DNA of 64,000 nucleotides from a virus (IMGVR_UViG_3300024259_002152:286867-350866), one strand, 5' to 3'. Counted from the first letter of the stretch, positions 1,193 through 63,511 are shown. The notes: generated by a model not told the origin, from the letters alone. A program made the numbers and translations.

Positions 1193-1981
1193 ATGATAGG
1201 TTCCATAATAGGCGATGTAATTGGTTCTCCTTATGAGGGGAGAAGGATGAATTTCTTTGATTATGATTTCCCTCTCTTTAATGAAAGATCTACATTTACA
1301 GATGATACTATACTAACTGTTGCTACAGCTAAAGCTATACTTGAAGATATTCCTTACAAAGATGTTTATCTTGAGTTTGGTAGAAAGTATAAACGTAAGG
1401 GTTATGGTGGAGCTTTTGAAGCATGGTTATGTTCTGATGATCCTCAACCTTATGATAGTTGGGGAAATGGTTCTGCTATGAGGGTGGGCCCTATAGGTTT
1501 TTATTTTGACGAAGATGATGAAATCTTAAAAGAAGCAAAAGCAAGTTCAGAAGTAACTCATAATCATCCACATGGAATAGACGGTGCTCAAGCAATAGCT
1601 TTAGCTATTCATCATGCTAAAATAGGAGACAGCAAAGAACAGATAAAAAAAATTGTTTTTGCTGTGACTGGTTATTATGATTTGAATAAAACTGTAGATG
1701 ATTATAGAAAGAATTATAAGTTTGATACTAGTTGTAAAGTAACTGTTCCCCAAGCATTAACTGCCTTCTTTGAATCTGATAGTTTTGAAGATTGTATTAG
1801 AAAGGCAGTTTTAATGGGGGGAGATACAGATACGCTGGCGTGTATAGCAGGGTCAGTAGCAGAAGCATATTATAAGATTATTCCTAATAATATTAGCATG
1901 AAAGCTTTAGAAAAACTACCTGTAGAATTTTCAATTATAATAAATCGTTTTTATAGGGAAGTTTTAGAAGGAAATATATGA
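1193..1981 (+). CDS. ADP-ribosylglycohydrolase (ARH/DraG family)
   Basis: N-terminal GSIIGDVIGSPYE, C-terminal GGDTDTLACIAGSVAEAYY signature of ARH family. Confidence 0.75.
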   Translation: MIGSIIGDVIGSPYEGRRMNFFDYDFPLFNERSTFTDDTILTVATAKAILEDIPYKDVYLEFGRKYKRKGYGGAFEAWLCSDDPQPYDSWGNGSAMRVGPIGFYFDEDDEILKEAKASSEVTHNHPHGIDGAQAIALAIHHAKIGDSKEQIKKIVFAVTGYYDLNKTVDDYRKNYKFDTSCKVTVPQALTAFFESDSFEDCIRKAVLMGGDTDTLACIAGSVAEAYYKIIPNNISMKALEKLPVEFSIIINRFYREVLEGNI

Positions 1982-2673
1982 TGCTGATTACTGTCATTGC
2001 AGATATGCATGGAAATTTGAAGTTTAAAGTTCCAGAAACGGATTTGCTTTTGATAGCGGGAGATATATGTCCAGCTTCTCATGATCGTTATATATCTATT
2101 GGTATGCAAAGAACATGGTTGGAAAACAAATTTAAAAAATGGATTTATGAACAACCTGTTGATCATGCTATTGCTATAGCTGGAAACCATTGTTGGATAT
2201 GGGAATGTGCTGAAAGTGAAGTTCCTATATGGTTTCCTAAAAATTGTGTCGATAAAGAAATGGTGGAGGATAATAAGATTGAATATATAGAGGACTTTTT
2301 AGTTTTCTATAAGGATTTAAAAATATATGGGACTCCTGTTCAGCTTTCTTTTAATAATTGGGCTTTTAATCGGGAAGAAGAATCACTACAAAAGTATTGG
2401 GATAATATCCCTGAAGGACTAGATATACTTCTTCTACATAGTCCTCCATATGGAATATTAGACCAAACTCATCATCCTAAATATCCTTCTAAGCGTATAG
2501 GTAGTAAAAGTTTGTTAAAAAGAATAAAACAGGTTAAACCTAAACTGGTAGTTTTTGGTCATAATCATGGAGACCATGGGGTGGTTGAAGAAGATGGTAT
2601 TAAGTATATTAATGCTTCTTTAATTGACGAGCATTATAAAATGGTAAGAAAACCGATTGTTATAGAAATATAA
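1978..2673 (+). CDS. calcineurin-like metallophosphoesterase
   Basis: DMHGN, GDI, GNHC, LLLHSPP, GHNHG motifs; start overlaps upstream stop. Confidence 0.7.
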   Translation: MMLITVIADMHGNLKFKVPETDLLLIAGDICPASHDRYISIGMQRTWLENKFKKWIYEQPVDHAIAIAGNHCWIWECAESEVPIWFPKNCVDKEMVEDNKIEYIEDFLVFYKDLKIYGTPVQLSFNNWAFNREEESLQKYWDNIPEGLDILLLHSPPYGILDQTHHPKYPSKRIGSKSLLKRIKQVKPKLVVFGHNHGDHGVVEEDGIKYINASLIDEHYKMVRKPIVIEI

Positions 2674-49603: not shown

Positions 49604-50026
49604 ATGCAAAGTGTTCAAGTAGGTAAGGAAGCCTCACGAACTGGTAGTGAGTCTTATATCCAGACCTACCAGAACCTGTTGAGGCAAAAAGAGCGTATTG
49701 ACAGGAATCTGATGAAGCTTCAGAGCAAATTATTAAGGGCTATGGCTGGTCAAAAGCCAGTCAGTAGTCCTGCGAAATATGTTTCGAGGCTTCCCAACAC
49801 GACCATTTTGGTCAGAGCTATTAGAGAGTGTATGACTCCGAATAAAGAGATGACTATGAGTGACATTCTAGAATCTCTTCATAAAAAGGATTTGTATCAC
49901 ACTCAGAGCCAGTATTTCTATACGATGGTTAATAATAAACTTAACCGTGATAGTCTTATTCATAAGGTTCGTCGCGGTGTCTTTATGTTTAAACCTCGCA
50001 GAAAAAAAGGAAGTGCTGTGGCATAA
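49604..50026 (+). CDS. hypothetical basic protein
   Basis: 140-aa ORF; followed by terminator. Confidence 0.45.
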   Translation: MQSVQVGKEASRTGSESYIQTYQNLLRQKERIDRNLMKLQSKLLRAMAGQKPVSSPAKYVSRLPNTTILVRAIRECMTPNKEMTMSDILESLHKKDLYHTQSQYFYTMVNNKLNRDSLIHKVRRGVFMFKPRRKKGSAVA

Positions 50027-50051
50027 AAATCTAAAAACATTTAAGTTTTTA

Positions 50052-50094
50052 ATGCCCAGTCTTCTTAGGAAACAGGATGATTGGGCATTTTTTT
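50052..50094 (+). terminator. rho-independent terminator
   Basis: ATGCCCAGTC-17 nt-GATTGGGCAT-T7. Confidence 0.6.
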
Positions 50095-50126
50095 ATACTT
50101 TTTTCCTAAAATTGGGAAAAAAAGAC

Positions 50127-50154
50127 TTGCAAAAGTAGGGAAAGTGTGTAGAAT
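50127..50154 (+). promoter_or_regulatory. sigma70-type promoter TTGCAA-N16-TAGAAT
   Basis: hexamers. Confidence 0.5.
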
Positions 50155-50165
50155 ACTGGGGTCAT

Positions 50166-50483
50166 GTGAGAGGCATGTATATTTTACACCTATGGATAAT
50201 GGAGATTATTGTGGAGCAAAGCGAAAGGACCAAGAACACCTACAGATTAAGATGTGAGAAGATAGTCAACGAATCATGGTCAAAAGTTGAGGAGCATGTA
50301 AATGAGATTATGAAAGCATTAGAGAAAGATATTCTTGATGAGAGAGATATTTTACTTTTAAGGCTTGCTTCTGGGGCTTTTGTTCAGAGAGTTCAGTTAA
50401 ATCAGTTAGAAAGTGATGAGCTTTTTCAGATAGATCCTAACGAGGGTCGTCGAGATAAAGATCTTGATCTTGATGTTTGTTAA
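50166..50483 (+). CDS. hypothetical protein
   Basis: 105-aa ORF behind TTGCAA-N16-TAGAAT promoter. Confidence 0.45.
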   Translation: MRGMYILHLWIMEIIVEQSERTKNTYRLRCEKIVNESWSKVEEHVNEIMKALEKDILDERDILLLRLASGAFVQRVQLNQLESDELFQIDPNEGRRDKDLDLDVC

Positions 50484-50557
50484 GCTCCTGTAGTCTAATA
50501 GGATAGGCACTGGTTTCCTAAACCAGATATATGCAGGTTCGAGTCCTGTCAGGAGTA
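50484..50557 (+). tRNA. tRNA-Arg(CCT)
   Basis: loop TTCCTAA. Confidence 0.65.
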
Positions 50558-50560
50558 TAA

Positions 50561-50635
50561 GTCCCTATCGCCTAATTGGATATGGCACTCCGCTACGGAC
50601 GGAGAATAGTGTGGGTTCGAATCCTACTAGGGATA
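50561..50635 (+). tRNA. tRNA-Arg(ACG)
   Basis: loop CTACGGA. Confidence 0.7.
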
Positions 50636-50640
50636 TTGCT

Positions 50641-50712
50641 AGGTCGTTGGTGAAATTGGTATCATTGGACTCTCCAAAAGTTCGGTTCAGGGTTCGAGTC
50701 CCTGGCGACCTG
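50641..50712 (+). tRNA. tRNA-Trp(CCA)
   Basis: loop CTCCAAA. Confidence 0.7.
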
Positions 50713-50718
50713 TTAAAA

Positions 50719-50765
50719 TTCCAGACAATGAGTTTGTAGAAATGGTAGTAGTATAGCACCGAATC
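50719..50765 (+). promoter_or_regulatory. promoter box + TATAGCACCGAAT
   Basis: motif. Confidence 0.5.
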
Positions 50766-50786
50766 CTTTTTTAGCGGAAAAAATAA

Positions 50787-50981
50787 ATGACAATTACAGA
50801 GCTGTATAAAAAATTAGGAAATATGGTAAAACATGGCTTAGGAGATGAGTCAGTAAAGATATCTATTCCTTTTAGAGATGGAATAGGTATTCATTATGAA
50901 GATATTGTGAATGTTACTACTCATGATGGGATAGTAGATATACATACTACTGTGTCAGAATATGATGATGTGAAAAAATGA
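50787..50981 (+). CDS. hypothetical protein
   Basis: 64-aa ORF. Confidence 0.35.
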   Translation: MTITELYKKLGNMVKHGLGDESVKISIPFRDGIGIHYEDIVNVTTHDGIVDIHTTVSEYDDVKK

Positions 50982-50987
50982 ATAGAA

Positions 50988-51061
50988 GCCCACGTAGACC
51001 AATCGGCAGAGTCATAGCATTTAAAATGCTAGTAGTGGTGGTTCGAGTCCACTCGTGGGTA
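50988..51061 (+). tRNA. tRNA-Leu(TAA), type-I-like
   Basis: loop TTTAAAA, short variable arm. Confidence 0.55.
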
Positions 51062-51077
51062 TTAAAATACTAGATAG

Positions 51078-51150
51078 GCCCAGGTGACCCAATGGCAGAG
51101 GTGAACGTTTCAAAAGCGTTTTGTTGGTGGTTCGAGTCCACTTCTGGGTA
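51078..51150 (+). tRNA. tRNA-Leu(CAA), type-I-like
   Basis: loop TTCAAAA, short variable arm. Confidence 0.55.
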
Positions 51151-52239: not shown

Positions 52240-53910
52240 ATGTCTGTTACAGAAGTTATAACAGAAACAAGACAGTTGGGAATGCACCCAAAACTCTTAA
52301 TGGATACTATTCAGAGGCAAGCAGGAAGTCTCCAAAAGGCTAATCTTGAAGGAGTCATGAATGCTATTGAGGCAGGCAGTCCTGAAGTTAGAATTAAGTT
52401 AGTAGTAGATGATGGCAAGGCTCTGCTTTCCATAGAGGATGATGGAAAAGGCATTGAAAATGAGCAAGAGATTTATGATTTTTTTGAGATTTTTGGCACT
52501 CCTCACGATGAGAGTGAGAATATGATATGGAAGCAATTCCGTATGGGTCGTGGGCAAATGTTTGCCTATGGCAGAAATACGTGGAGAACATCAACATTCA
52601 AAATGATTGTTGATATTAAGCACAAAGGGCTGGATTACGAATTGCAAAAGGGATTACCTTTTGTTAATGGGTGTCAGATTGACATTGAGTTGTATAGGAA
52701 TCCTATTGGTTCTTCCCATAATAGTATGGATTCTTATAAAGAAATGATTACGGAGCAAGTTAGATTCATGGAAGGAAGAGTCCTGTTTAATGAGGAGCAA
52801 ATAAATCTTCCTGCTTCTGAATGCAAATGGGATTTTGAAGATGATGATGCTTATTATCTGTTTAATGCTGGCTTAGATTTTAAGATTTATAATCTTGGAG
52901 CATTCGTCACAAAACCTTGGAATATAGGTATGAGTGGTATTGCTGTTTCTAAGCAACAGTTGGTAGTAAATTTTGCCAGAAATGATGTTCAGGATGATTG
53001 TGAAGTATATTGCAGAATGAAAAAGGTTATTCGAGAGAATCGTATTAAAACGACTCGTCGGACTCGGAGAACCTTGACTACTTCTTTAAGATTTGCTACT
53101 CTTAGAGATTTGAGAGATAATACTCAAGATATTAAAGGTATTCAGAGTTTGTCTCTTATTCCAACTGCTCAAGGAAGGCATATCTCTCTTAGTGATATAA
53201 GAAAGGTAAAGCAACAATGGTGTTTTGCTCCTCAGGGAGATAGACGTGCTGATAAGATGATGGAGAGAGGTGATGCTTTATGTATTTGTCAAGACCTTTT
53301 GGTTGATTTGGGATACACGGGCATACCTGAAATGTTTTTTGTATGGCTCACTCATACTGAGCAGTGGCGTTATGGCAATAATATATGGGAAGATATTGCT
53401 AAACTATACGTTGATTTTGAAGATTTGACAAGCAATATGTCTGACTCTTATGTTGTTTTGCCTGATAAAAAACAGACAGTAACAGAGAGAAGAATTATTA
53501 CAGTTCTTCAAAAGATGGCATGTTGGAATCAAAGACGTATTCTCCTGGGTTCCTCTGATACAGCCGCGGCTTGGACAGATGGTAGCACCTATATCTGTAT
53601 TGACCGCACTTGGCTGAAAAGCAAACATCTTACTTGTGGCACTCATATTAATCAACTCTTGATGACAATGGCTCATGAAATGGCTCATGATATTGATACA
53701 AGAGGCACTCATTATCATGGTCCTGAGTTCGATAGGAATATGATACAAATATTAGAATCTGATAGTTCTCCTACTTGTTGGGCAGCTAATTTCTGCCATA
53801 ATATGAGTAAGAGTCGGATAGAGGAAAGAAGAGTAAAAGAAGCTCAGCAACAGGAGAAAGCAAAGCATAAAGTTAATAAAAAATTAGGTATTGCGGCAAA
53901 AGAAAAGTAA
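52240..53910 (+). CDS. GHKL-type ATPase-like N-domain fused to HExxH metallopeptidase-like C-domain
   Basis: N-box LEGVMNAIEAG, G1 IEDDGKGIE, G2 GRGQMFAYG; C-terminal TMAHEMAHDID...GPEFD. Confidence 0.5.
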   Translation: MSVTEVITETRQLGMHPKLLMDTIQRQAGSLQKANLEGVMNAIEAGSPEVRIKLVVDDGKALLSIEDDGKGIENEQEIYDFFEIFGTPHDESENMIWKQFRMGRGQMFAYGRNTWRTSTFKMIVDIKHKGLDYELQKGLPFVNGCQIDIELYRNPIGSSHNSMDSYKEMITEQVRFMEGRVLFNEEQINLPASECKWDFEDDDAYYLFNAGLDFKIYNLGAFVTKPWNIGMSGIAVSKQQLVVNFARNDVQDDCEVYCRMKKVIRENRIKTTRRTRRTLTTSLRFATLRDLRDNTQDIKGIQSLSLIPTAQGRHISLSDIRKVKQQWCFAPQGDRRADKMMERGDALCICQDLLVDLGYTGIPEMFFVWLTHTEQWRYGNNIWEDIAKLYVDFEDLTSNMSDSYVVLPDKKQTVTERRIITVLQKMACWNQRRILLGSSDTAAAWTDGSTYICIDRTWLKSKHLTCGTHINQLLMTMAHEMAHDIDTRGTHYHGPEFDRNMIQILESDSSPTCWAANFCHNMSKSRIEERRVKEAQQQEKAKHKVNKKLGIAAKEK

Positions 53911-54042
53911 ATGTAAAGCATTAAGAGAACAGGAGTTATAAAAAATATCTCCTGTTTTCTATTTTTTTCTTGACAGCAAAGTGAAAGTAAGTATAATGAT
54001 GGCACCAAAAGTGATAATATAAACAAATGAAAGGAATGTCAG

Positions 54043-54336
54043 ATGTATAGAGTAATAATTCTTGTAGGGATAGTGATAGGTATAATATATCTTGTTGTTA
54101 AATTGGTGAGAAGCCCGAAGTTCGACAAGTTTTGTAAAGATCTTTCTGAAGGCAAGGTGGAGGAAGATGTGGCACCGAAAGAGACTATCAAAGAGATTAC
54201 TCAGGCTGAGATAGAATTGAATAGAGTAGCAAAAGAAAATCAACGTAAAGCTGAAAAACTTACTGCTGAGGGTGGAAGTATTAACAAATTTTTAGAAAAA
54301 CGGGGTGTGGTTAAGCCGAAGAAGGAGGATAGTTAA
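54043..54336 (+). CDS. membrane-anchored coiled-coil protein
   Basis: TM then charged helix. Confidence 0.4.
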   Translation: MYRVIILVGIVIGIIYLVVKLVRSPKFDKFCKDLSEGKVEEDVAPKETIKEITQAEIELNRVAKENQRKAEKLTAEGGSINKFLEKRGVVKPKKEDS

Positions 54337-54418
54337 TGAAATAAGCTATGGAGGTTGTTTGTAGTATAGTAGATAGTGTGGTAAGAAACAAATATTAATT
54401 TTTGAATTGGAGTAAACA

Positions 54419-55756
54419 ATGAGTCCGAAACAGATTGTAATTGCAGTAATTGTGGTAATAGCTATCGCTCTTGTAGGGTCGCTATTCATGGGAATGGTGT
54501 CCGTTAATGACGGTCAGAATTGGGTCTACCTTCAGCATCTGAGCGGTAAGGTGGTTATTGTTGATGAGCCTGGTGTGTATTGGAAATTCTTTGGCACTGA
54601 TTGGGTATATCCTCGTTATATCGAATTTCGATATAATGACGATCCTGAGGACGGAGATTTAGCTAAAGAATCTATTCAAGTCACATATAATGATGGTGGT
54701 ATGGCAGATATTTCTACCTATATCCGTTTAGCAACTCCATCGACCCAAAAGCGACGTATTGCTTTTCATGAGCAATTTGGCGGAAATAAGGATAATATTA
54801 AAGCTTCTACCAAATCATATATGATTGATTGTTTACAATCGACAGCACCGATTATGAGTTCCTCTGAGAATCAGTCGGCACGAAAGGCTGAGTTTAGGCA
54901 GGTTGTAGAAGGACAATTGAAGTATGGCACATATAAAATGCGTAAAGAAATAATTGTTCAGAAAGACACAACTGACGCGACTGGGAAGGGTATTACTATT
55001 TTCAAGACAGAGATTATCAATGATGCAGACGGCATGCCTATTGTCGTTACTAGATCTCCTATTGCCGAAGATTTTGGTATGACCGTTGTTCAATTCTCGG
55101 TTACCGACACCGATTATGATCCTGAGACTCGTAAGCAATTTGCGGCCAAGAAGGCATCTTTTTTGCTTACAGAGCAGGCTAAGGCAGATCGTGAGAAAGA
55201 AACTCAAGAACGTCTAATGGTTATTGAGAGAGGTTTGAAGGAGAAAGCCATCGAGACTGCTAAAGCGAATGTGTTAAAAGCTAAGGCAGTTATCGCGGGA
55301 GAGTTGAAAGCCGAAGTTGCACTTCAAACTAAACTTGAAGCTGAGACCAAGGCTGCCCAGAAGCTATCGGTTGCCGAGATTAACAAACAAGAGCAGTTGA
55401 TGATTGCAAGTGCTAAGCTTGAAGTAGCTCAGATTAAAGCTAAGGAAGCTGAGCAAGAAAAGGTTGCAGCAATTTTGAGGGCTGAAGGCAAAAAAGAAGC
55501 TATTCAGTTGTCGGGGGCCATAACTGAATTGGAACAGGCGATGATCGATGCTGAAGTTGAGAAGGCAAGGGTTGTTTCCGAAGCATTAGCAAAGATCAAG
55601 GTTCCTTCGACAATGATTATCGGTGGTGGTGAAGGAAAAGGTAATACCCTTATGGAAAACCTGATCAATATGAAACTTATGACTGATACAGGTATTCTGA
55701 ATAAGACTGATATCAATGCCTCCGATGTCGATCGTAGGGTTGACAGGACAAAGTGA
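54419..55756 (+). CDS. SPFH/band-7 (flotillin-like) membrane protein, putative
   Basis: N-terminal TM, globular domain, long Ala/Glu/Lys-rich coiled coil. Confidence 0.4.
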   Translation: MSPKQIVIAVIVVIAIALVGSLFMGMVSVNDGQNWVYLQHLSGKVVIVDEPGVYWKFFGTDWVYPRYIEFRYNDDPEDGDLAKESIQVTYNDGGMADISTYIRLATPSTQKRRIAFHEQFGGNKDNIKASTKSYMIDCLQSTAPIMSSSENQSARKAEFRQVVEGQLKYGTYKMRKEIIVQKDTTDATGKGITIFKTEIINDADGMPIVVTRSPIAEDFGMTVVQFSVTDTDYDPETRKQFAAKKASFLLTEQAKADREKETQERLMVIERGLKEKAIETAKANVLKAKAVIAGELKAEVALQTKLEAETKAAQKLSVAEINKQEQLMIASAKLEVAQIKAKEAEQEKVAAILRAEGKKEAIQLSGAITELEQAMIDAEVEKARVVSEALAKIKVPSTMIIGGGEGKGNTLMENLINMKLMTDTGILNKTDINASDVDRRVDRTK

Positions 55757-55785
55757 CACCTATGACCTCCATGGGTTATTTAGCG

Positions 55786-55836
55786 AACCCCCTTATTGTT
55801 TGAATAGTTATATTTAGATAGTAAGGGGGTTTTTTA
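55786..55836 (+). terminator. rho-independent terminator
   Basis: AACCCCCTTA...TAAGGGGGTT-T5. Confidence 0.6.
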
Positions 55837-55842
55837 TTAAAA

Positions 55843-55906
55843 TTCCAGACAATGAGTTTTAAGTTATTATAGAATGTAAACAATAACTTTTTGTCGGAGA
55901 AATAAA
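55843..55906 (+). promoter_or_regulatory. promoter box + conserved leader AATAACTTTTTGTCGGAGAAATAAAATG
   Basis: motif. Confidence 0.55.
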
Positions 55907-56740
55907 ATGTCGAAACCTATCGGAATCATCTTGTGGCAAGGGAAATCCCTAATAGACAATGAGAGAATAGCGGTAATCGCTACAGGGATTGGTAGAGAAT
56001 CGGAAAACAGAAAAACAGGGGATATGATTCAAACCTACATTATTCGTAGGGATATTCACCCAATGTTGGCACGACGGATGGGAGAGGACAAAAGTATTTG
56101 TGGGGATTGCAAACATAAAGAAGGTAGCACATGCTATGTTAATCTCTGTCATGGTCCTATTGGGGTGTTCCATGCTCTGATTGATGGTAGTTATCGACCG
56201 TATGGGGATAAGGATATTGAGCTATTCCGAGACCGTTTCTTCAGAATTGGTTCTTATGGGGACCCTGCGGCGGTACCATATGAAGTATGGGAGAATATTT
56301 GCAGTGTTGCTAAGGGATATACTGGTTATACTCATCAGTGGAAAAACTGCGATCAAAGACTGAAAAACTATTGTATGGCAAGTGTTGATAGTATCAAGGG
56401 TTATATGAAGGAATATAATCAAGCTCAAGCAATGGGCTGGAGGACTTTCAGAATCAGAGAGAATGAAGATAATGTTTTGATGGAAAATGAAATGATTTGT
56501 CCTGCTAGTAAAGAAGCAGGGGCATTAACTACTTGTGAGCAGTGTAATCTATGTGGTGGTTTGAATAGGGCTAATGGTAGAAACCCTGTTATAATGCTCC
56601 ATGCCGATAGTGAAGCAATGGGTAGCATGTGGCGTCGTGATAGATATATCAAGATGATGAAAAAGATCAAAAACAAAAAAGCATGGCGTAGGAATTACAA
56701 AGCAGAACGTAAAGAATTTAAGAAGGTGTGTAGATTCTAA
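55907..56740 (+). CDS. Cys-rich hypothetical protein
   Basis: 277-aa ORF behind conserved leader. Confidence 0.45.
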   Translation: MSKPIGIILWQGKSLIDNERIAVIATGIGRESENRKTGDMIQTYIIRRDIHPMLARRMGEDKSICGDCKHKEGSTCYVNLCHGPIGVFHALIDGSYRPYGDKDIELFRDRFFRIGSYGDPAAVPYEVWENICSVAKGYTGYTHQWKNCDQRLKNYCMASVDSIKGYMKEYNQAQAMGWRTFRIRENEDNVLMENEMICPASKEAGALTTCEQCNLCGGLNRANGRNPVIMLHADSEAMGSMWRRDRYIKMMKKIKNKKAWRRNYKAERKEFKKVCRF

Positions 56741-57383: not shown

Positions 57384-58160
57384 ATGGGAACCAGAGGTAA
57401 GAAAATTTGTGAATGTGGCACCGAAGTAGGGGCAAGAACTCGTGTATGTTCTTGTGGTTATGAATTTTATGAGAAGAGAGTCGCTGAGCCTAAAAAGGTA
57501 GAAGTAGTTGAACAATCCCCAGGTGAAGGTAGGAAACAATGTTCTTGTGGTTTCTTTATGAACTCAAGAATAAAGTTCTGTCCTACTTGCAATGAAAGAG
57601 TGGTTTGCAAACCAAAAGAGCGCAAAGCTATAGAGCAAGTCCCAGGTCCTGGTAGAAAACAGTGTGCTTGTGGGGTGTTTGTAGCTTTGAGAATCAAAAT
57701 TTGTCCTTCTTGTAATCAGGAGATTGTTACTAAACCCAAAGAGCCAAAAGAAGTTAAGCCAGTAGAGCAGTCCCCAGGGATAGGTAGAAAACAATGTGTT
57801 TGTGAGTTGTTTGTTGGGGGAAGAACAGGTATTTGTCCGTCGTGTGGTCATGTTTTTGTTCCTGGCGAAAGGCAAGAAAGAGAGAAGAAAGAAAGAGCAG
57901 CAAGAAAGGCAGAAAAGGCTGAGATTCAGAGACCTATGACTCGAGCTGAGAAATTTACTCAGCAACTATTAAAACAGTTTTATGATAATCCTCCAGAAGT
58001 GTTGGAAATGAAGGGTTTAACTGCTGATGATCATGCCCATCGGGTATTGGGACTAGGTGAGGAAAGAGCTGGGATTTTACTTTTTCAGCACAAAACCAAA
58101 CAAGGAGAAAGTTGGTCCCATGTTAATTGGAAACTTGTTGAAGAGCAACTAACCAAATAA
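57384..58160 (+). CDS. protein with four tandem zinc-ribbon modules
   Basis: repeats PG(x)GRKQCxCG...R...CPxC about 45 aa each. Confidence 0.45.
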   Translation: MGTRGKKICECGTEVGARTRVCSCGYEFYEKRVAEPKKVEVVEQSPGEGRKQCSCGFFMNSRIKFCPTCNERVVCKPKERKAIEQVPGPGRKQCACGVFVALRIKICPSCNQEIVTKPKEPKEVKPVEQSPGIGRKQCVCELFVGGRTGICPSCGHVFVPGERQEREKKERAARKAEKAEIQRPMTRAEKFTQQLLKQFYDNPPEVLEMKGLTADDHAHRVLGLGEERAGILLFQHKTKQGESWSHVNWKLVEEQLTK

Positions 58161-58403: not shown

Positions 58404-59735
58404 ATGTCAGCGATAACAGAACATAAGAAATGTATTTGTGTAGAATTTGGAGATACTAACAACAACAAGGTATGGCAATATACTTTGTATGATGATGACA
58501 CTGCCTTAACAGAGTGGGGGAGAGTTGGGAAAGGTCTACAAAGTAAGATAACAAGTCATTCTCAGGCTCTTAAAAAGTGGAGAGAAAAAACCAATTCCAA
58601 TAACAAACCCGACAAAATGTATACTGAAGTAAAAGCAGTTGATACGGGGGGTTCTGTTTCTGTCGGCTCTGTTAAAAATGCAGAATTGAAAGATGTTGCT
58701 AAGAAACAGATTAAATCTAAAAATCCTGTTATTGCACAACTTATTGATTTTCTTGTTCAAGTCAATGCCCATCAGATTTTGAAACAATCGGGTGGCAAGA
58801 TCATGTATGATGCAAACTCCGCACAATTCAAAACACCACTCGGAGTTATTGACCCAGTGCAAGTAGCAGAAGCTAGAGATTTGCTTGTTATGATTTCTGA
58901 TTTTGTAAAGGCTGAGGACTTTGATAATAAAGAATTTGGTAGGATTCTTAATTCCTATCTTAGACTTATTCCTCATGATGTAGGAATGTCTAAGATTTCT
59001 ACTGGACGAATATTTCCTAATACTCAAACAGTTATTGCAGAGAATGATTTGCTTGATGGTTTGGAAACTTCCTTTATTGATATTACGACAAAGCCGACAA
59101 AGAAGAAAACCAAAAAGAAAGATGCTCCACAAATTTTTAATGTTGAAATGGAGATTGTAAGTGATAAGCAAATCTTGTCTCATGTCAAGCACCTTTATCA
59201 ATCGACAAGAAAGAGTATGCACCAATCTAACAATCTTTCTGTTCAAACAGTTTATGCTGTAACGATCAAGAACATGAAAGATGGATATGATAAGCATGGT
59301 GCTAAGATGAGTAACATTTGGCAGTTGTGGCACGGAACAAAGGCAAGTAATCTTTTGTCTATTATGAGGCAAGGTTTGATTATTCCTTCTTCCAGTTCTG
59401 GTCATGTGACAGGTCGAATGTATTCCGATGGGGTGTATTTTTCTGACATTAGTACTAAAGCACTGAATTATGCTACGAACTACTGGGGAGGTGGAGGCAA
59501 TACTGATAAAACGTTTATGTTTTTGGCGGACGTAGCGATGGGTAATTACCATATCGCCAAAAGTAGTTGGACTAAATATCCTATTCCTGGTTCGGATAGT
59601 ACATGGGCGAAAGGCAGAGATAAAGGGGGAGTTAATTCTGGAGTGGTCAACGATGAAATGATAGTATATCGTCTTGATCAGTGTAATCTTGTTTATTTGG
59701 TAGAATTTGTGCCAAATTCTCAGCTTAGAACATAA
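58404..59735 (+). CDS. PARP-like ADP-ribosyltransferase with N-terminal WGR domain
   Basis: WGR: WQYTLYDDDTALTEWGRVGKG; catalytic QLWHGTKASN...GRMYSDGVYFSD...DEMIVYRLDQCNLVYL matches the PARP1 H-Y-E core motifs. Confidence 0.8.
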   Translation: MSAITEHKKCICVEFGDTNNNKVWQYTLYDDDTALTEWGRVGKGLQSKITSHSQALKKWREKTNSNNKPDKMYTEVKAVDTGGSVSVGSVKNAELKDVAKKQIKSKNPVIAQLIDFLVQVNAHQILKQSGGKIMYDANSAQFKTPLGVIDPVQVAEARDLLVMISDFVKAEDFDNKEFGRILNSYLRLIPHDVGMSKISTGRIFPNTQTVIAENDLLDGLETSFIDITTKPTKKKTKKKDAPQIFNVEMEIVSDKQILSHVKHLYQSTRKSMHQSNNLSVQTVYAVTIKNMKDGYDKHGAKMSNIWQLWHGTKASNLLSIMRQGLIIPSSSSGHVTGRMYSDGVYFSDISTKALNYATNYWGGGGNTDKTFMFLADVAMGNYHIAKSSWTKYPIPGSDSTWAKGRDKGGVNSGVVNDEMIVYRLDQCNLVYLVEFVPNSQLRT

Positions 59736-59803
59736 ATAAAGGATTTTTATTTGTATATTAGAATATATACTTCATAACAAGAATTATATATGGAGTATAT
59801 AAA

Positions 59804-60610
59804 ATGAGTAAATATCCTTTATTAGATAACAAAGAATGGCTTTATAGTAAGTATATTCAAGAATATCTTGGTTTTAGAGCGATATGTAAATTAGTAGGAG
59901 CACAAAGCACTAATTCTGTTAGACAATCATTAATAAAGCACTCTATTCCAATTAGAACTATTGGAGATGGTATCAGAATTAATAGAGTAGATGATGGTTT
60001 TATTATTAACAAAGAAGTTATAGAAGGTTGTTTATTAGGAGATGGTTTCTTATGTAAGTGGAATAAAAAAAATGATAATTCTTTTCCTTATTTCGCGAAA
60101 AGAAATAAATATTATGATCATATAATATATGTTTCTAGAATTCTTTTTGGTAATAAGTGGAAGGAAAGGACAAAAGAGAATGATGAAAAAAGTTTAGGAA
60201 AAAGACATGTAGTATTTACTTTAAGAAGTTTGTCAAATAAGCTTTTACAATCATTTTATAAAAGGTGGTATCCTGAGTGGAATAATTATAAAAAAGTAAT
60301 ACCTGATGATATTGATATAACACCAACATTACTACTACATTGGTTTTTAGATGATGGTAATTCTTACCAAAGAAGAAAAAATAGTAGCACCAAACAAATA
60401 GTTATAACTCTTTGTAGTGAATGCTTTAATAAAGATGATCAACAAATGATAGTGGAAAAAATAAACTACATTTTTGGTTTAGTTTGCACTTTGAAGAAGG
60501 TTAATTATGGCACTGGATATCAGATACGTATTCCTCAATCTCAAGCATCTTTGTTTTATGATATTATAGGTCCTTGCCCTGTTCCAAGTATGAAATATAA
60601 ATGGAAGTAA
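59804..60610 (+). CDS. LAGLIDADG homing endonuclease (two-motif)
   Basis: CLLGDGFL and HWFLDDGNS; very AT-rich. Confidence 0.65.
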   Translation: MSKYPLLDNKEWLYSKYIQEYLGFRAICKLVGAQSTNSVRQSLIKHSIPIRTIGDGIRINRVDDGFIINKEVIEGCLLGDGFLCKWNKKNDNSFPYFAKRNKYYDHIIYVSRILFGNKWKERTKENDEKSLGKRHVVFTLRSLSNKLLQSFYKRWYPEWNNYKKVIPDDIDITPTLLLHWFLDDGNSYQRRKNSSTKQIVITLCSECFNKDDQQMIVEKINYIFGLVCTLKKVNYGTGYQIRIPQSQASLFYDIIGPCPVPSMKYKWK

Positions 60611-60612
60611 AA

Positions 60613-60685
60613 TTCCAGACAATGAGTTTCTTAAAACAATAGAGTAGTTACGAATAAAAACTAATAATTTTACGGAGAAACAAAA
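60613..60685 (+). promoter_or_regulatory. promoter box + leader
   Basis: motif. Confidence 0.5.
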
Positions 60686-61270
60686 ATGTGTACGACAGCA
60701 ACAGCATCTTTAATTGTTGAGACTATTGAGAAATTTTGCCAGGACGATGATGTTTTTACTGCTTTTGATATTACGAAAGAAGTAAGAGCAAAAACTTCTG
60801 AGCGTATTTCTCATAATGATGTAAGAAGAATTGTTGTTAATGAACTCGCTCCAAATGCTGATTACGACAAAGATCTTTGTGTTCTTAATGTGCCGAGCAA
60901 TCCAACTGCTTTGGTTTATTTTCCTGATGGAAAATCTGCCACGGACCATCCTTTGGTCTCTGCTGGCACTGTTGTCGATGATGGGACTGATGTTGATGAT
61001 GACGATGATGACGAGGAGGATGATAATAACGATTTAGCAGATGATGAGTATGAACTTACGTCGGAAGGTAGGGTTGAAATTCCTAAGACCATATTGACTC
61101 AAGTGACTGCTAATGCAGGTAGTTACGACATTTTGGTCAAAGGATCGTTGAAATGTGTAACACCGAATGCTGATGGTCGTGTCAGGGTATGCTTGAAACA
61201 GATGGGTATTAGTGATAAGGTGACATTATCGGTAGATTCGACTAATAACACTATCAACATTACGAGTTAA
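60686..61270 (+). CDS. acidic hypothetical protein (poly-Asp tract)
   Basis: DDDDDDEEDDNND. Confidence 0.45.
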   Translation: MCTTATASLIVETIEKFCQDDDVFTAFDITKEVRAKTSERISHNDVRRIVVNELAPNADYDKDLCVLNVPSNPTALVYFPDGKSATDHPLVSAGTVVDDGTDVDDDDDDEEDDNNDLADDEYELTSEGRVEIPKTILTQVTANAGSYDILVKGSLKCVTPNADGRVRVCLKQMGISDKVTLSVDSTNNTINITS

Positions 61271-61285
61271 CAACAGTTTCTGTTT

Positions 61286-61333
61286 GGAGGAGCAGGTTGA
61301 CAATTTCCGTCGTCTTCCTGCTCCTCATTTTTC
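61286..61333 (+). terminator. rho-independent terminator
   Basis: GAGGAGCAGG-20 nt-CCTGCTCCTC-T5. Confidence 0.6.
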
Positions 61334-61354
61334 AAAATGGTATAAGGAGTAAAT

Positions 61355-61546
61355 ATGTATCTTTTAAGGTTCCATGATAGAGAGGAGTTGTCAGATATGA
61401 GAATTTCTGATCACATAGAAACTTTGAAGGCATTTGCTCGGAACGATATAGATGGAGAGTTGCAATTCAAAGGATTTTTTGATATAGTTTCTGTCAATTG
61501 TAAGGGACAAGAGATAGGGATTATTGGGGAAGTGACTGAAATATAA
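61355..61546 (+). CDS. hypothetical protein
   Basis: 63-aa ORF. Confidence 0.35.
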   Translation: MYLLRFHDREELSDMRISDHIETLKAFARNDIDGELQFKGFFDIVSVNCKGQEIGIIGEVTEI

Positions 61547-61575
61547 GAAGTTGTGTAGCATTTTATTTCTCTGTA

Positions 61576-61610
61576 GGGAGTAGGCGTGGTTTCCTACTCC
61601 CTTATTTTTT
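61576..61610 (+). terminator. rho-independent terminator
   Basis: GGGAGTAGG-CGTGGTTT-CCTACTCCC-TTATTTTTT. Confidence 0.65.
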
Positions 61611-61630
61611 CTAGACAATGAGGTTGTTAT
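61609..61630 (+). promoter_or_regulatory. variant promoter box TTCTAGACAA
   Basis: one substitution. Confidence 0.35.
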
Positions 61631-61936
61631 ATGAGAATTCAAACAGAAGTAGAGCATATATTTAGAGTTTTTGTATATTGTCCGAAAGGACATAAAGTTA
61701 AAGGACATTCTGAATGGATATTTTCTCATCCAAAATGTATTTCATGTCAAAAAAGAAAACATGAGGGCAAAACTTTTTTCAGAATAGATTTTTTAGGTGT
61801 TGCCCCACAGGACAGGGTTAAAATAAGAAAATATTGTAGAGACCAATTAAGAGAATATTATGAAAAATATATCATTATGAACAGGAAAAAGGAAAATAAT
61901 TCCAGACAACGTGTTTCTCAGAATGGTATAGTGTAG
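61631..61936 (+). CDS. Cys/His zinc-binding protein
   Basis: CPKGH...CISCQKRKHEGK. Confidence 0.4.
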   Translation: MRIQTEVEHIFRVFVYCPKGHKVKGHSEWIFSHPKCISCQKRKHEGKTFFRIDFLGVAPQDRVKIRKYCRDQLREYYEKYIIMNRKKENNSRQRVSQNGIV

Positions 61937-61966
61937 CACTGATTAAAACTCTTTTGGAGAAATAAA
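61900..61966 (+). promoter_or_regulatory. promoter box + TAGCACTGATT + conserved leader
   Basis: motif. Confidence 0.5.
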
Positions 61967-62278
61967 ATGAACCAGATACCTGAATTAAAATCCTACCAGG
62001 ACAATGAGATCAAAGAGGGAAGTGAATTTGCCAAGATGGTGGCAGATAAGATCAATAGTGGTTATGGGACTAGTAAGTTATTCCGAAAGGGATTTGCTGC
62101 CACTATAGCAGGTCCAAAGACCCACAATACAGTTCAGCAACTATTTTTTAAGTTGGTTCAAGAGTGTATTAAAGAAATGGCTAATGCTAGGTTTGTTGAT
62201 GGTCGAAACCAGGATAGTCATGAATTTGCAAAAGAGTGTTTGGATACAATAGAGAAGCACTGTTTGCCATATATCTAA
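61967..62278 (+). CDS. hypothetical protein
   Basis: 103-aa ORF. Confidence 0.4.
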   Translation: MNQIPELKSYQDNEIKEGSEFAKMVADKINSGYGTSKLFRKGFAATIAGPKTHNTVQQLFFKLVQECIKEMANARFVDGRNQDSHEFAKECLDTIEKHCLPYI

Positions 62279-62294
62279 TTTTCGGAGAAATAAA

Positions 62295-62513
62295 ATGAGC
62301 AAAGAAACAAAAGCAGTCCAAAAGAAATGTTTTAATAAGTGTCCTAGATGTGAGGCTGGGATAAAAGATATTGAATATGTTGAATGGGGAGCATATGAAT
62401 GCTCAGGAGAGACAATCATACAAAAGGCTGTATGTAAACAATGTGGACAAGAATTTACAGAGAATTATGTCTATTCTTACTCTGAGATAGAATTTGAGGT
62501 AGAAACAAAATGA
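62295..62513 (+). CDS. zinc-ribbon protein
   Basis: CPRCEAG...CKQCGQ. Confidence 0.4.
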   Translation: MSKETKAVQKKCFNKCPRCEAGIKDIEYVEWGAYECSGETIIQKAVCKQCGQEFTENYVYSYSEIEFEVETK

Positions 62514-62689
62514 CTGTTAAAGAACTAATAGACGAACTTTCACAAATGCCTATGGACACAAAGGTTGTAACTACAGAATATGCAAGCCCCGAGGATTCTG
62601 TACCGTATGTAAAAGATATAACGGAACCAATGTATCATAAAAATGGTATTTTAGGAACACATGGAGAGCCAGTTGTAGATATCTCATAA
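62510..62689 (+). CDS. small protein, paralogue 1 (MTVKELI...)
   Basis: 59-aa ORF; N-terminus shared with 62758 gene. Confidence 0.35.
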   Translation: MTVKELIDELSQMPMDTKVVTTEYASPEDSVPYVKDITEPMYHKNGILGTHGEPVVDIS

Positions 62690-62692
62690 TAA

Positions 62693-62757
62693 TTCCAGAC
62701 AATGAGTTTCTTATTATGATATACTGTAAACAATAACTTTTTTGTCGGAGAAATAAA
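62693..62757 (+). promoter_or_regulatory. promoter box + conserved leader
   Basis: motif. Confidence 0.5.
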
Positions 62758-62928
62758 ATGACTGTTAAAGAACTAATAGAGGAACTTTCTCAACTACCTA
62801 TGGATGCACAAGTTATAGCAACTGTGCGTGGAGGTGATAGTTCGTATTCGGATTATATTAGCACTACAGTATGTCACGAGAAAGGTCTTGCAGGAATTAC
62901 TGAAGAAACAGTTGTGGAAATAGATTAG
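62758..62928 (+). CDS. small protein, paralogue 2 (MTVKELI...)
   Basis: 56-aa ORF. Confidence 0.35.
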   Translation: MTVKELIEELSQLPMDAQVIATVRGGDSSYSDYISTTVCHEKGLAGITEETVVEID

Positions 62929-62953
62929 TAGAACTTTTTTTTGGAGAAATAAA

Positions 62954-63511
62954 ATGAGTTTTGGTTCAACTGAAAGTATAAAAAAGATACTAGATAATCC
63001 ATGTCTTCCAGGTCTCCTAAAAACAGTAGAGGGAGATGCTACAGACCCCCAATTCATAAAATCGAATGAGATAGCTATCATTCCTCATTGTTGTAATAAC
63101 AAAGGACAATGGGGAAAAGGTTTTGTTCTAGCACTGAGCAAAAAGTGGAAAAGACCAGAGAGTATATATAGAAATTTTTGTAAAATACACCAAGAAGAAA
63201 ATATTTTGGGTAGGAATTGTTCTGCTAAAATAGATGATCATCTTGCTATTGTTAATATGATAGCTCAAGATGGGACTGTTTCGGAAGATAATCCTAAACC
63301 CATTAGATACAAAGCACTTGTGCAATGTATGACACGGGTAGTTGATTATATTGAAATGATAAAATCTCAGAATACTAATCCTATTGCTATACATTGTCCC
63401 AAGTTTGGAAGTGAACTCGCGGGCGGGACATGGTCTTTCATATTAGAGCTTATCCATGAAATATGGATAGATGCTGGTATCGATGTTGTAATCTATGAGT
63501 ATAAGGGTTAA
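62954..63511 (+). CDS. macro domain protein (TARG1/OARD1-like ADP-ribose hydrolase)
   Basis: IPHCCNNKGQWGKGFVLAL and AIHCPKFGSELAGGTW parallel the OARD1/TARG1 macro-domain core motifs. Confidence 0.7.
   Translation: MSFGSTESIKKILDNPCLPGLLKTVEGDATDPQFIKSNEIAIIPHCCNNKGQWGKGFVLALSKKWKRPESIYRNFCKIHQEENILGRNCSAKIDDHLAIVNMIAQDGTVSEDNPKPIRYKALVQCMTRVVDYIEMIKSQNTNPIAIHCPKFGSELAGGTWSFILELIHEIWIDAGIDVVIYEYKG

Follow-up and report, generated by a model that had tools for sequence, protein, structure and literature searches.

What does a PARP homologue do in a jumbo phage, and is the macrodomain protein encoded a few kilobases downstream there to undo its work? The locus that raises these questions lies in a 64,000-nucleotide stretch of DNA, here called the window, from the roughly 350-kb genome of an uncultivated jumbo phage, and the window has zero nucleotide matches among deposited phages. 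A sequence-only reading had proposed a PARP with WGR and catalytic domains and a TARG1-like macrodomain as a writer/eraser pair, and both ORFs sit exactly where it placed them, at 58404-59735 (+, 443 aa) and 62954-63511 (+, 185 aa), 3.2 kb apart with eight ORFs between. The surroundings of the PARP gene are small accessory ORFs on a single strand, with a tRNA array nearby. The features discussed below are as follows.

1193..1981, +: ADP-ribosylglycohydrolase of the ARH/DraG family, 262 aa (Pfam PF03747, 1.2e-38), 57 kb upstream of the PARP gene
1978..2673, +: calcineurin-like metallophosphoesterase (Pfam PF00149, 1.2e-11; PADLOC PDC-S10, 3.6e-58), whose ORF shares 4 nt with the ARH gene
58404..59735, +: PARP homologue, 443 aa, with WGR, HD and ART domains (Pfam, PDB, Foldseek, phrog)
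58404..58637, +: WGR domain, aa 1-78, motif W38-G39-R40 (sub-threshold Pfam match; structural alignment)
58683..59072, +: helical regulatory domain (HD, PARP_reg), aa 94-223 (PF02877; all-helical in the model over these residues)
59136..59732, +: ART catalytic domain, aa 245-443 (PARP1 alignments), with H310 at 59331-59333, Y345 at 59436-59438 and E418 at 59655-59657
59804..60610, +: LAGLIDADG homing endonuclease (Pfam PF03161, 2.5e-19), inserted between the PARP gene and its usual downstream partner
60686..61270, +: PARP-linked partner, 194 aa, with a novel N-terminal domain, an acidic linker and, on weak support, an AbrB/SpoVT-like C-terminus
61575..61602, +: terminator-like hairpin from a consensus scan (10-bp stem with 6 G-C pairs, plus a T-run), lying after the PARP unit and before the macrodomain gene
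62954..63511, +: macrodomain of 185 aa in the SCO6735/BT1257 subclass (ALC1-like class), with H45, N48, Q105 and E154

The first ORF is a PARP of the clade-1 type, with the minimal WGR-HD-ART architecture seen in PARP2, PARP3 and bacterial PARPs. It matches the Pfam catalytic domain PF00644 at E=1.6e-24 (87 bits, cut-off 26.7), phrog_23333 at 1.7e-46 and, by phmmer against the PDB, human PARP1 WGR-HD-CAT at 1.9e-18 and PARP2 at 3.6e-17; Foldseek aligns its AlphaFold model (pLDDT 77) to PARP1 (4dqy_C) and PARP2 (6x0l) over about 480 columns with TM 0.64-0.67 and E of about 1e-24. The match scores of this ORF and of the macrodomain ORF are far beyond chance. Profile searches had been expected to return PARP, WGR and macrodomain families, and in Pfam only the first did so: the WGR match stays under its cut-off (16.9 bits against 22; E 0.0068), and the macrodomain ORF has no Pfam match. 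The WGR domain is confirmed structurally, because the model aligns full-length to the WGR-CAT chains of PARP1 and PARP2; it has beta-strands (aa 4-51) followed by a helix (aa 52-62). Across the phage homologues G39 and R40 of the motif are invariant and preceded by W, Y, F or N, matching the 'YGR' variant and W/Y/F variation of bacterial PARPs (PMC5966428). The HD, which the sequence-only reading did not mention, scores above its Pfam cut-off (PF02877, E=7e-8, 33 bits against 26.8, aa 125-240).

Human PARP1, PARP2 and PARP3 are the best sequence and structure matches and share the domain order, the H-Y-E triad and the NAD+-site residues G863, K903 and Y907, whereas the phage protein lacks their zinc fingers, BRCT domain and N-terminal tail and is about 22% identical to them. 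The size and the minimal WGR-(HD)-ART architecture are shared with HaPARP of Herpetosiphon aurantiacus and CdPARP of Clostridioides difficile, both of which produce PAR in vitro, HaPARP being DNA-dependent (PMC8120803; PMC4245714). The nearest bacterial-genome proteins are at most 40% identical to the window PARP. Bacterial PARP systems have been described along with PARG, and no PARG was found among the ORFs scanned in the window.

The catalytic and NAD+ site is intact and strongly conserved. H310, Y345 and E418 align with PARP1 H862, Y896 and E988, as the sequence-only reading had stated, and are invariant in 44 phage homologues and also in 46 clade members. The PARP1 motifs it quoted are present, except that the glutamate stands in an N-D-E context rather than x-N-E, PARP1 N987 being replaced by Asp. 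The equivalents of PARP1 residues 862, 863, 896, 903, 907 and 988 (H, G, Y, K, Y, E) are all invariant in the 44 phage homologues, and this invariance over a range of 26-100% identity indicates purifying selection on activity. Two positions depart from PARP1: the nicotinamide contact Ser904 is Ala in the window PARP and in 17 of the 44 homologues, and the acceptor-site Tyr986 is Asn in 44 of 44. The loops in the C-terminal half of the ART domain are also shorter than those of human PARP1. Because of the two substitutions polymer formation is uncertain; judged from sequence, the product may be polymers or single units. The triad had been called diagnostic of poly-ADP-ribosylation, which goes too far; it is necessary for PAR synthesis, yet the mono-transferases PARP3 and PARP4 keep it, as Vyas and colleagues reportedly found in 2014, and the PARP4 matches in the PDB carry the name "mono-ADP-ribosyltransferase". 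We know of no HPF1-like factor for a phage PARP.

PARPs had further been held to be essentially unknown in phages, which is contradicted by 16 deposited phage records with a PARP match by tblastn, by existing annotation and by papers of 2014, 2021 and 2022. The PARPs of Aeromonas phage Aeh1 and of phi4:1 were already listed by Perina (2014), jumbo-phage PARPs such as BBA65562.1 by Iyer (2021; PMC7824862), and Iyer (2022) places PART/PARP among the most frequent viral ARTs. Annotated full-length homologues, 31-34% identical over 94-95% of the protein, are found in Xanthomonas phage XacN1 (BBA65562.1), Xoo-sp13 (gp368) and Klebsiella phage FBKp34 (gp111), the last annotated with WGR, regulatory and catalytic domains; the annotated PARPs of Cellulophaga phi4:1 and phi17:2 align with the query in the catalytic domain alone. 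IMG/VR adds 36 viral contigs with a PARP. Unlike the deposited proteins, the window PARP falls in a separate metagenome-only clade of more than 120 clusters at at least 52% identity, on contigs of up to 394 kb. It belongs to a large, mostly viral family and is a sound further example of phage PARPs already annotated and reviewed; in the literature searched we found no phage PARP with tested activity.

The most conserved neighbour of the PARP is the 194-aa acidic protein, which the sequence-only reading missed. A member of its family lies just downstream of the PARP in 24 of 45 viral loci, often overlapping it or less than 100 nt away, against none of 37 bacterial-genome loci (Fisher p=1e-8, for loci that are not phylogenetically independent). 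The LAGLIDADG gene that separates the two here is missing from the corresponding spot in the relatives L008-L011, and L018 has a related endonuclease at the same position. For the partner itself no Pfam family was found. Its C-terminus may be AbrB-like, a weakly supported assignment suggested by a match to PDB 2k1n at E=1.3, an hhalign value of 55% and single family members that match PF14250 and PF04014, each at 3e-4. This protein is the likeliest working partner of the PARP.

The macrodomain is TARG1-like in so far as it belongs to the ALC1-like class, which includes human TARG1/OARD1 and the DarG antitoxin macrodomain, but its subclass is that of SCO6735 and BT1257. By phmmer against the PDB it matches BT1257 at 2e-28, SCO6735 at 3e-25 and the ALC1 macrodomain at 9e-6; its AlphaFold model (pLDDT 93) gives Foldseek TM values of 0.90 for BT1257, 0.89 for SCO6735 and 0.79-0.84 for TARG1 and DarG, hhalign to TARG1 reaches 94%, and phrog_335 is matched at 7.7e-20. 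In place of the catalytic lysine (TARG1 K84, DarG K80) it has Gln105, TARG1 Asp125 is Ala156, and the DarT-binding C-terminal domain of DarG is lacking. SCO6735 (Streptomyces coelicolor) and BT1257 (Bacteroides thetaiotaomicron) are 34-40% identical to the window protein, which keeps His24, Asn27, Gln85, Gly87 and Gly126 of SCO6735 together with the long 'mobile loop', but has Val for Lys89, Cys for Val25, Glu154 for Gly128 and, compared with both, a 20-residue low-confidence N-terminal extension. SCO6735 takes off both Glu/Asp-linked and thymidine-linked ADP-ribose (PMC9411070).

The proposed writer/eraser link is plausible but weak, and would be facultative. A SCO6735-type macrodomain lies within 10 kb of the PARP in 10 of 45 viral loci, at varying distance, order and orientation, and within 5 kb in 7 of 45, compared with 0 of 37 bacterial loci, which also lack the 194-aa partner within that distance. 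FBKp34 has one 2.4 kb away; XacN1 and Xoo-sp13 have none within 12-20 kb. The ARH-family protein, also missed by the sequence-only reading, is a possible second eraser; its best PDB match is ARH3 (6.6e-16), with DraG weaker and the NCBIfam DraG and Tri1 matches far under their cut-offs, and it was linked to a PARP in no other locus examined. The overlapping metallophosphoesterase is an uncertain member of the system.

There is a real, if less than even, chance that the macrodomain, and perhaps the ARH enzyme too, is an independent anti-defence function rather than the PARP's eraser: an orphan DarG-like antitoxin that would clear phage ssDNA of the ADP-ribose which host DarT2-type toxins attach to thymidines, its proximity to the PARP being incidental. 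SCO6735, the closest characterised relative and the one tested member of the subclass, acts on DarT-modified thymidine-ADPr DNA in preference to protein substrates and protects cells against DarT (PMC9411070), and phages offer a precedent in the orphan antitoxin-like hydrolase NADAR AdfN, which acts against DarTG1 (PMC11825919). Macrodomain homologues occur in 278 deposited phage records against the 16 with a PARP match, and 35 of 45 PARP loci have none within 10 kb. PADLOC gives a weak DarG match (5e-4), and no DarT among the four nearby ORFs scanned with it. The hairpin between the PARP unit and the macrodomain gene also speaks for this reading, but only suggestively, because such sites are no more numerous in the region than in shuffled sequence. 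Against this, what look like several separate lineages have the macrodomain near the PARP, in differing order and strand: the window's clade, L034, L045 and FBKp34, and Cellulophaga at 17 kb. In Streptomyces phages such as Moab, moreover, a homologue 32-39% identical to ours is encoded right beside an NAD+-using writer of the phage (a sirtuin or another ART), in a predicted writer-eraser or toxin-antitoxin pair (PMC9503650). This suggests that members of the family often act together with a writer that the phage itself encodes, although there the writer is directly adjacent and here the candidate is 3.2 kb off. The DNA-positioning Lys34 of SCO6735, though Lys in the window protein, is Ala in most clade members, and 79 of 121 have Asp or Glu at the Gly128 position.

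We consider it unlikely that the PARP is a host-takeover effector like T4 Alt, ModA and ModB (enzymes of a different ART clade, as the sequence-only reading said, namely R-S-E; PMC9503650), modifying host RNA polymerase, translation factors or defence proteins with no tie to nucleic-acid breaks. Iyer et al. 2021 (PMC7824862) put forward this function for the PARPs of jumbo phages, and it would suit the accessory, single-strand setting near the tRNA array. Against it, the phage PARPs retain and conserve WGR and HD, which couple activity to nucleic-acid binding in PARP1-3. Their neighbours elsewhere are also ligases, endonuclease, topoisomerase and nucleotide-metabolism genes rather than head or packaging genes: among 146 ORFs within 3 kb of the PARP at 34 loci in other phages (loci that are not phylogenetically independent), the commonest annotated include RNA ligase 1 (5), RNA ligase (4) and ATP-dependent DNA ligase (2), along with NUDIX (4) and non-specific endonuclease (4), and in Cellulophaga phi17:2_18 the PARP is flanked by tRNA nucleotidyltransferase and DNA ligase. 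The window has no ligase near its PARP, the association being one of other lineages, in which the context points to nucleic-acid ends.

Less probable still is a toxin-antitoxin-like or superinfection-exclusion module in which an unrestrained PARP would drain NAD+ and the AbrB-like partner would restrain it. The tight pairing of the two genes fits this, as do the AbrB/MazE fold typical of type II antitoxins, hinted at by the weak PF04014 and PF14250 matches, and reported phage ART-based toxin-antitoxin pairs (PMC9503650); but the AbrB hints are weak, roughly half of the viral PARP loci and every one of the 37 bacterial loci have no partner gene, and the HD already builds in autoinhibition. It is very improbable that the PARP has lost catalysis and survives as a DNA-binding relic, with the macrodomain a mere ADP-ribose reader: Ala at S904 is tolerated, being common to 17 homologues, the remaining catalytic and NAD+-site residues do not vary, and although the macrodomain has Glu where the G128E change costs SCO6735 much of its activity (PMC9411070), its H45, N48 and Q105 vary hardly or not at all across 121 sequences.

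On balance we lean towards a PARP that acts as a nucleic-acid-break-activated ADP-ribosyltransferase, with the 194-aa protein as its partner and a facultative link to an eraser. Nucleic-acid-dependent, regulated activation is supported by the HD match above its Pfam cut-off and by the invariant G-R of the WGR motif. Reasoning by analogy from PARP1-3 and from HaPARP and CdPARP, the two bacterial enzymes with in-vitro assays, we would expect the WGR domain to bind a broken or nicked nucleic-acid end, the autoinhibitory helical domain to be released as a result, and the ART domain to use NAD+ to ADP-ribosylate the PARP itself and nearby targets, for which Asp/Glu side chains or the terminal phosphates of the break are candidates. 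The 194-aa partner might serve as a substrate, recruiter or restraining factor. The mark could then be reversed by the SCO6735-type macrodomain and the ARH-family glycohydrolase or the macrodomain may just as well strip host-imposed ADP-ribose off the phage DNA.

The protein encoded at 58404-59735 is a member of the PARP family, clade 1 (PARP1/2/3-like), in which the ART, HD, and WGR domains and the catalytic triad are all found. An earlier sequence-only reading had proposed both this PARP and a macrodomain protein downstream of it, and the two open reading frames lie exactly where it had placed them. The genes concerned are these:

58404-59735, + strand: PARP, 443 aa
59804-60610, + strand: free-standing LAGLIDADG homing endonuclease (Pfam), inserted between the PARP gene and its partner gene
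60686-61270, + strand: partner protein, 194 aa
62954-63511, + strand: macrodomain protein, 185 aa

Pfam places residues 259-412 in the PARP catalytic family (PF00644, E = 1.6e-24, 87 bits against a gathering cut-off of 26.7), as had been predicted, and residues 125-240, N-terminal to the ART domain, in the regulatory domain family (PARP_reg/HD, PF02877, 33 versus 26.8 bits). The best PDB sequence matches are human PARP1 WGR-HD-CAT constructs (1.9e-18) and PARP2 (3.6e-17), followed by PARP3 and PARP4, with PARP1 catalytic domains matched at about 4e-18. The proposed WGR domain scores below the Pfam threshold (16.9 versus 22 bits), but an AlphaFold model built from an alignment of 46 homologues (pLDDT 77) superposes over about 480 columns on chains that span WGR, HD, and CAT, those of DNA-bound PARP1 (4dqy_C, 8g0h_D) and PARP2 (6x0l), with TM 0.64-0.67 and E about 1e-24, which settles the question of the WGR domain. 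Within the model, a helical block at residues 94-223 aligns to the PARP1 HD. The motif itself is present as W38-G39-R40, with the Gly and Arg invariant among homologues, several of which carry a precomputed PF05406 match, and its first residue varies among the phage homologues (Tyr in 19, Trp in 18, Asn in 5, and Phe in 2), much as has been reported for bacterial PARPs with a "YGR" variant (PMC5966428). A Lys-rich linker between HD and ART (residues 226-240) was considered as a special feature and set aside, since it occurs only in the window's clade and the PARP1 linker is equally long.

The His-Tyr-Glu triad is intact, with His310, Tyr345, and Glu418 aligning with PARP1 H862, Y896, and E988 and invariant in 44 of 44 phage homologues; across these homologues, which span 26-100% identity, the equivalents of PARP1 H862, G863, Y896, K903, Y907, and E988 are all constant. 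Judged by these residues, the window PARP looks catalytically competent. The further claim that the triad is diagnostic of poly-ADP-ribosylation goes too far, because the triad is necessary and not sufficient for polymer synthesis: Vyas and colleagues reportedly found in 2014 that PARP3 and PARP4 retain it yet are mono-transferases. At the position of PARP1 S904, 27 of the 44 phage homologues have Ser and 17, like the window PARP, have Ala, and at that of Y986 all have Asn, substitutions that make chain elongation by the window PARP uncertain.

PARPs are not essentially unknown in bacteriophages, as had been supposed. A tblastn search found homologues in 16 deposited phage records, several of them annotated; those of XacN1, Xoo-sp13, FBKp34, and Cellulophaga phages bear the name poly(ADP-ribose) polymerase, and BFVD holds full-length phage models under the UniProt name NAD(+) ADP-ribosyltransferase. 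Perina et al. 2014 listed Aeromonas phage Aeh1 and Cellulophaga phage phi4:1 as carrying PARPs (PMC4245714), Iyer et al. 2021 noted jumbo-phage PARPs and proposed that they modify host proteins with polymers (PMC7824862), and Iyer et al. 2022 counted PART/PARP as one of the viral ART families met most often (PMC9503650). The literature we searched held no experimental work on any phage PARP. A large protein collection contains 1255 relatives, including more than 120 clusters at least 52% identical to the window protein on contigs of up to 394 kb, and IMG/VR adds 36 further viral contigs with a PARP, many of them 150-548 kb long, while relatives in bacterial genomes come from MAGs of diverse phyla and reach at most 40% identity. 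The window PARP belongs to a metagenome-only jumbo-phage clade within a family already catalogued in phages.

The source of the window is an uncultivated jumbo phage, since a 350,866-bp contig carries exactly this PARP, as do several shorter metagenomic contigs on which the genes are arranged in the same order. Coding is almost all on the + strand, G+C is about 33-36%, and 31 tRNA genes lie at 41-51 kb. The 24 kb of the window that were searched gave no nucleotide match to deposited phages, and the window's helicase is only 24-25% identical to cyanomyovirus helicases (tblastn). Several features away from the PARP gene were recorded alongside:

8260-9327, 11946-13133, and 15654-16988, + strand: two DNA methyltransferases and a DndB/DpdB-like protein (PF14072, 6.4e-9)
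27404-28417, + strand: polynucleotide kinase/phosphatase-like protein, phrog_505
30856-31743, + strand: inosine-uridine nucleoside hydrolase homologue (PF01156, 1.6e-12)
41039-51150, + strand: the array of 31 tRNA genes, with small ORFs interspersed and one call (42263-42338) with an odd two-base anticodon

The methyltransferases and the DndB/DpdB-like protein point to functions in modifying DNA or countering restriction in the same region of accessory genes, and the kinase-like and nucleoside hydrolase genes may be relevant to RNA repair or to nucleotide or NAD salvage. PNK3P and AAA_33 were also found among the window's ORFs in a Pfam survey.

The genomic setting of the PARP gene was compared across 45 viral loci, made up of the window itself, four relatives from metagenomes, four loci of cultured phages, and 36 contigs from IMG/VR. 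When all of their ORFs were clustered, the most conserved neighbour of phage PARPs proved to be the family of the 194-aa partner, which the sequence-only reading had not mentioned, rather than the macrodomain. A partner-family gene is found in 24 of the 45 loci, where it usually follows PARP immediately, in many of them with a spacing of -7 to +72 nt; the 37 PARP loci from bacterial genomes have none (p = 1e-8 versus viral). The 194-aa protein has no match in Pfam, NCBIfam, or PADLOC. In family members, a conserved, novel N-terminal domain (about 90 aa) is joined by a variable linker, acidic in many cases, to a C-terminal segment with convergent weak matches to the AbrB/MazE/MraZ fold: a profile search of PDB sequences returned AbrB alone (E = 1.3; hhalign 55%), and single family members match PF14250 and PF04014, each at 3e-4. 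These matches hint that the C-terminus might be AbrB-like. In L018, a locus whose PARP is 43% identical to the window's, an endonuclease related to the one in the window (11322-12773) occupies the same position between PARP and partner genes, which suggests that this intergenic spot is a recurrent homing site.

Upstream of the PARP gene, the following were observed:

52240-56740, + strand: GHKL-ATPase-like (556 aa), SPFH/Band-7 (445 aa), and Cys-rich (277 aa, phrog_2554) proteins, conserved in the close clade
53970-53997: perfect sigma-70 consensus
55785-55832: long terminator-like hairpin
57384-58160, + strand: 258-aa protein with repeated Cys-rich zinc-ribbon-like units, roughly PGxGRKQCxCGxFxxxRxKxCPxCN, conserved in L008 (a close metagenomic relative) and L018 only

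The SPFH and 277-aa genes were rejected as PARP partners, being syntenic within the close clade only; the 277-aa family is, moreover, widespread in phage records of genera for which the tblastn search returned no PARP (Mycobacterium, Gordonia, Roseobacter, and others).

The macrodomain protein had been read as TARG1-like, and the fold and the broad class bear this out. It has no Pfam match, and phmmer against the PDB finds BT1257 of Bacteroides thetaiotaomicron (2e-28), SCO6735 of Streptomyces coelicolor (3e-25), and the ALC1 macrodomain (9e-6). Its structural model (pLDDT 93) is closest to BT1257 (TM 0.90) and SCO6735 (0.89), then to ALC1, Poa1p, DarG, and TARG1, with Foldseek returning TARG1 entries 4j5r, 4j5q, and 4j5s at E 5e-9 to 2e-8 and TARG1 and Thermus aquaticus DarG superposing at TM 0.79-0.84. 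The family profile matches TARG1, the human OARD1 protein, with 94% probability (hhalign). The numbering of the TARG1 sequence used for this alignment reproduces K84 and D125. TARG1 proper is a different matter, as both of its catalytic residues are replaced. Gln105 aligns with Lys84 and is Gln in 120 of 121 clade members, and Ala156 aligns with Asp125, with an acidic residue, Glu154, two positions earlier at TARG1 G123. Given these replacements and the closest matches, the protein belongs to the SCO6735/BT1257 subclass of the TARG1/DarG/ALC1 class, a subclass that functions without the Lys/Asp pair (PMC9411070). It keeps the longer "mobile loop" of that subclass, the phmmer alignment being ungapped through it, whereas the hhalign alignment with TARG1 opens a gap of 4 residues there.

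The residues essential in SCO6735 are His24, Asn27, and Gln85, the last positioned by Asn27 (PMC9411070), and they correspond here to H45, N48, and Q105, which vary little or not at all among 121 relatives (N48 never). One difference between the two proteins is notable. Gly128 of SCO6735 lies in the phosphate-binding loop, and the G128E change costs that enzyme much of its activity (PMC9411070), whereas the window protein has Glu154 there and 79 of 121 clade members have Asp or Glu (D 57, E 22, L 19, G 13, A 8). This acidic residue may weaken the enzyme, or it may be a relocated catalytic acid or reflect a change of substrate. SCO6735 removes Glu/Asp-linked ADP-ribose from protein and prefers the thymidine-linked ADP-ribose that DarT makes on DNA (PMC9411070); hydrolysis of either linkage is known for SCO6735 alone and would apply to the window's macrodomain only by analogy.

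Whether this macrodomain is the eraser of the PARP's mark, as in the writer/eraser pair of the sequence-only reading, was addressed by comparing the same viral loci. A macrodomain-family gene, detected with the family profile, lies within 10 kb of PARP in 10 of the 45 viral loci.

Macrodomain-family genes near PARP in viral loci, with distance from the PARP gene
Window's own clade: 3.2-7.4 kb downstream
L034: 1.7 kb
L045: 4.5 kb, opposite strand
Klebsiella phage FBKp34: 2.4 kb upstream, annotated "putative phosphatase"
Cellulophaga phi17:2_18, an eleventh locus: 17 kb away

None was found within 12-20 kb of PARP in XacN1 or Xoo-sp13, in the other 31 IMG/VR PARP loci, or within 5 kb in the 37 bacterial-genome loci. 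Counting only genes no more than 5 kb from PARP, 7 of 45 viral and 0 of 37 bacterial loci have one (Fisher p = 0.015, for loci that are not independent). Macrodomain homologues occur in 278 deposited phage records against 16 with a PARP match, and in the window a good terminator-like hairpin (61575-61602) separates the PARP unit from the macrodomain gene. On these grounds the PARP-macrodomain link is real but facultative. In Streptomyces phages, macrodomain homologues abut a sirtuin or ART gene, a combination already predicted to be a writer and its eraser (PMC9503650). Just upstream of the macrodomain gene are two tandem paralogous ORFs, both beginning MTVKELI(D/E)ELSQ(M/L)PMD:

62510-62689, + strand: 59 aa
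62758-62928, + strand: 56 aa

A serious rival to the facultative link is that the macrodomain is an independent anti-DarT enzyme, similar to the orphan NADAR antitoxins of T-even phages (PMC11825919). Its match to the PADLOC DarG model is weak (5e-4) and covers the macrodomain part only. DarG of DarTG2 has a catalytic Lys80 where the window protein has Gln, and the window protein consists of a macrodomain without the C-terminal DarT-binding domain. PADLOC found no DarT among the four ORFs scanned (PARP, the 194-aa partner, the 258-aa zinc-ribbon-like protein, and the 277-aa ORF), and the combination of Lys80, DarT-binding domain, and adjacent DarT that marks a DarG antitoxin is not seen here.

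The same phage has a second ADP-ribose-processing pair, 57 kb from PARP and likewise absent from the sequence-only reading:

1193-1981, + strand: ADP-ribosylglycohydrolase (ARH; PF03747, 1.2e-38), best PDB matches ARH3
1978-2673, + strand: calcineurin-like metallophosphoesterase, overlapping the ARH gene by 4 nt (PADLOC defence-candidate model PDC-S10, 3.6e-58)

No ARH, PARG, or other eraser proved to be a consistent PARP neighbour. None of the 44 other viral loci has an ARH within 10 kb of PARP, and of the 64 Pfam families in its vicinity, the 25 commonest do not include Macro, PARG, or ARH, though single occurrences may exist among the rarer ones.

Where a locus has no macrodomain, the annotated genes found most often within 3 kb of PARP include RNA ligase 1 (5), RNA ligase PF09414 (4), ATP-dependent DNA ligase (2), NUDIX (4), non-specific endonuclease (4), and nucleotide-metabolism enzymes, and in Cellulophaga phi17:2_18, PARP is flanked by a tRNA nucleotidyltransferase and a DNA ligase. 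Neighbourhoods so rich in ligases, seen in other lineages, are consistent with a PARP function at broken nucleic-acid ends. In five IMG/VR loci with T4-type genes (L031, L033, L035, L036, and L047), RNA ligase 1 is directly upstream of PARP, at about 0.3-1 kb, with topoisomerase II subunits, dNMP kinase, and non-specific endonuclease further upstream.

What is established is the domain architecture, the conservation of both the catalytic site and the partner gene, and the presence of two potential erasers. From there, a mechanism can be proposed by analogy with PARP1-3 and with HaPARP, whose activity is DNA-dependent (PMC4245714, PMC8120803). The WGR domain would bind a nick or end and release the HD block, and the ART domain would then use NAD+ to modify the PARP itself and nearby acceptors; such activation by DNA breaks through WGR/HD allostery is what we infer from the domains that have been kept and from the ligase genes around PARP in other phages. 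Since PARP3 can ADP-ribosylate terminal DNA phosphates and TARG1 and ARH3 can remove the mark (PMC5725667), end-capping is a possible variant. In this variant, which we consider improbable, the PARP and its possibly DNA-binding partner would form a nucleic-acid-directed system that senses broken DNA or RNA ends during infection, attaches ADP-ribose or PAR as a cap to terminal phosphates, a reaction that PARP3 performs in vitro, and controls the access of ligase and exonuclease, with the phage's macrodomain- and ARH-type hydrolases uncapping the ends.

The observation in the sequence-only reading is confirmed and its interpretation partly supported. What the locus adds is a large clade of WGR-HD-ART PARPs in uncultivated jumbo phages, so far seen in metagenomes only, and its value lies less in the gene's existence than in the biology of phage PARPs and two contextual leads. 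The origin of eukaryotic PARP signalling is frequently sought in the conflict systems of bacteria and viruses, and we know of no phage or bacterial PARP with a known physiological role. If end-capping were true, it would be the first physiological role of PARP-type nucleic-acid end modification outside eukaryotes. The two leads, neither of which we found in the literature searched, are a phage-specific partner tightly linked to PARP and the repeated finding, in other phage lineages, of PARP next to RNA and DNA ligases, and because culturable PARP phages exist (Klebsiella FBKp34, Xanthomonas XacN1), both are directly testable.
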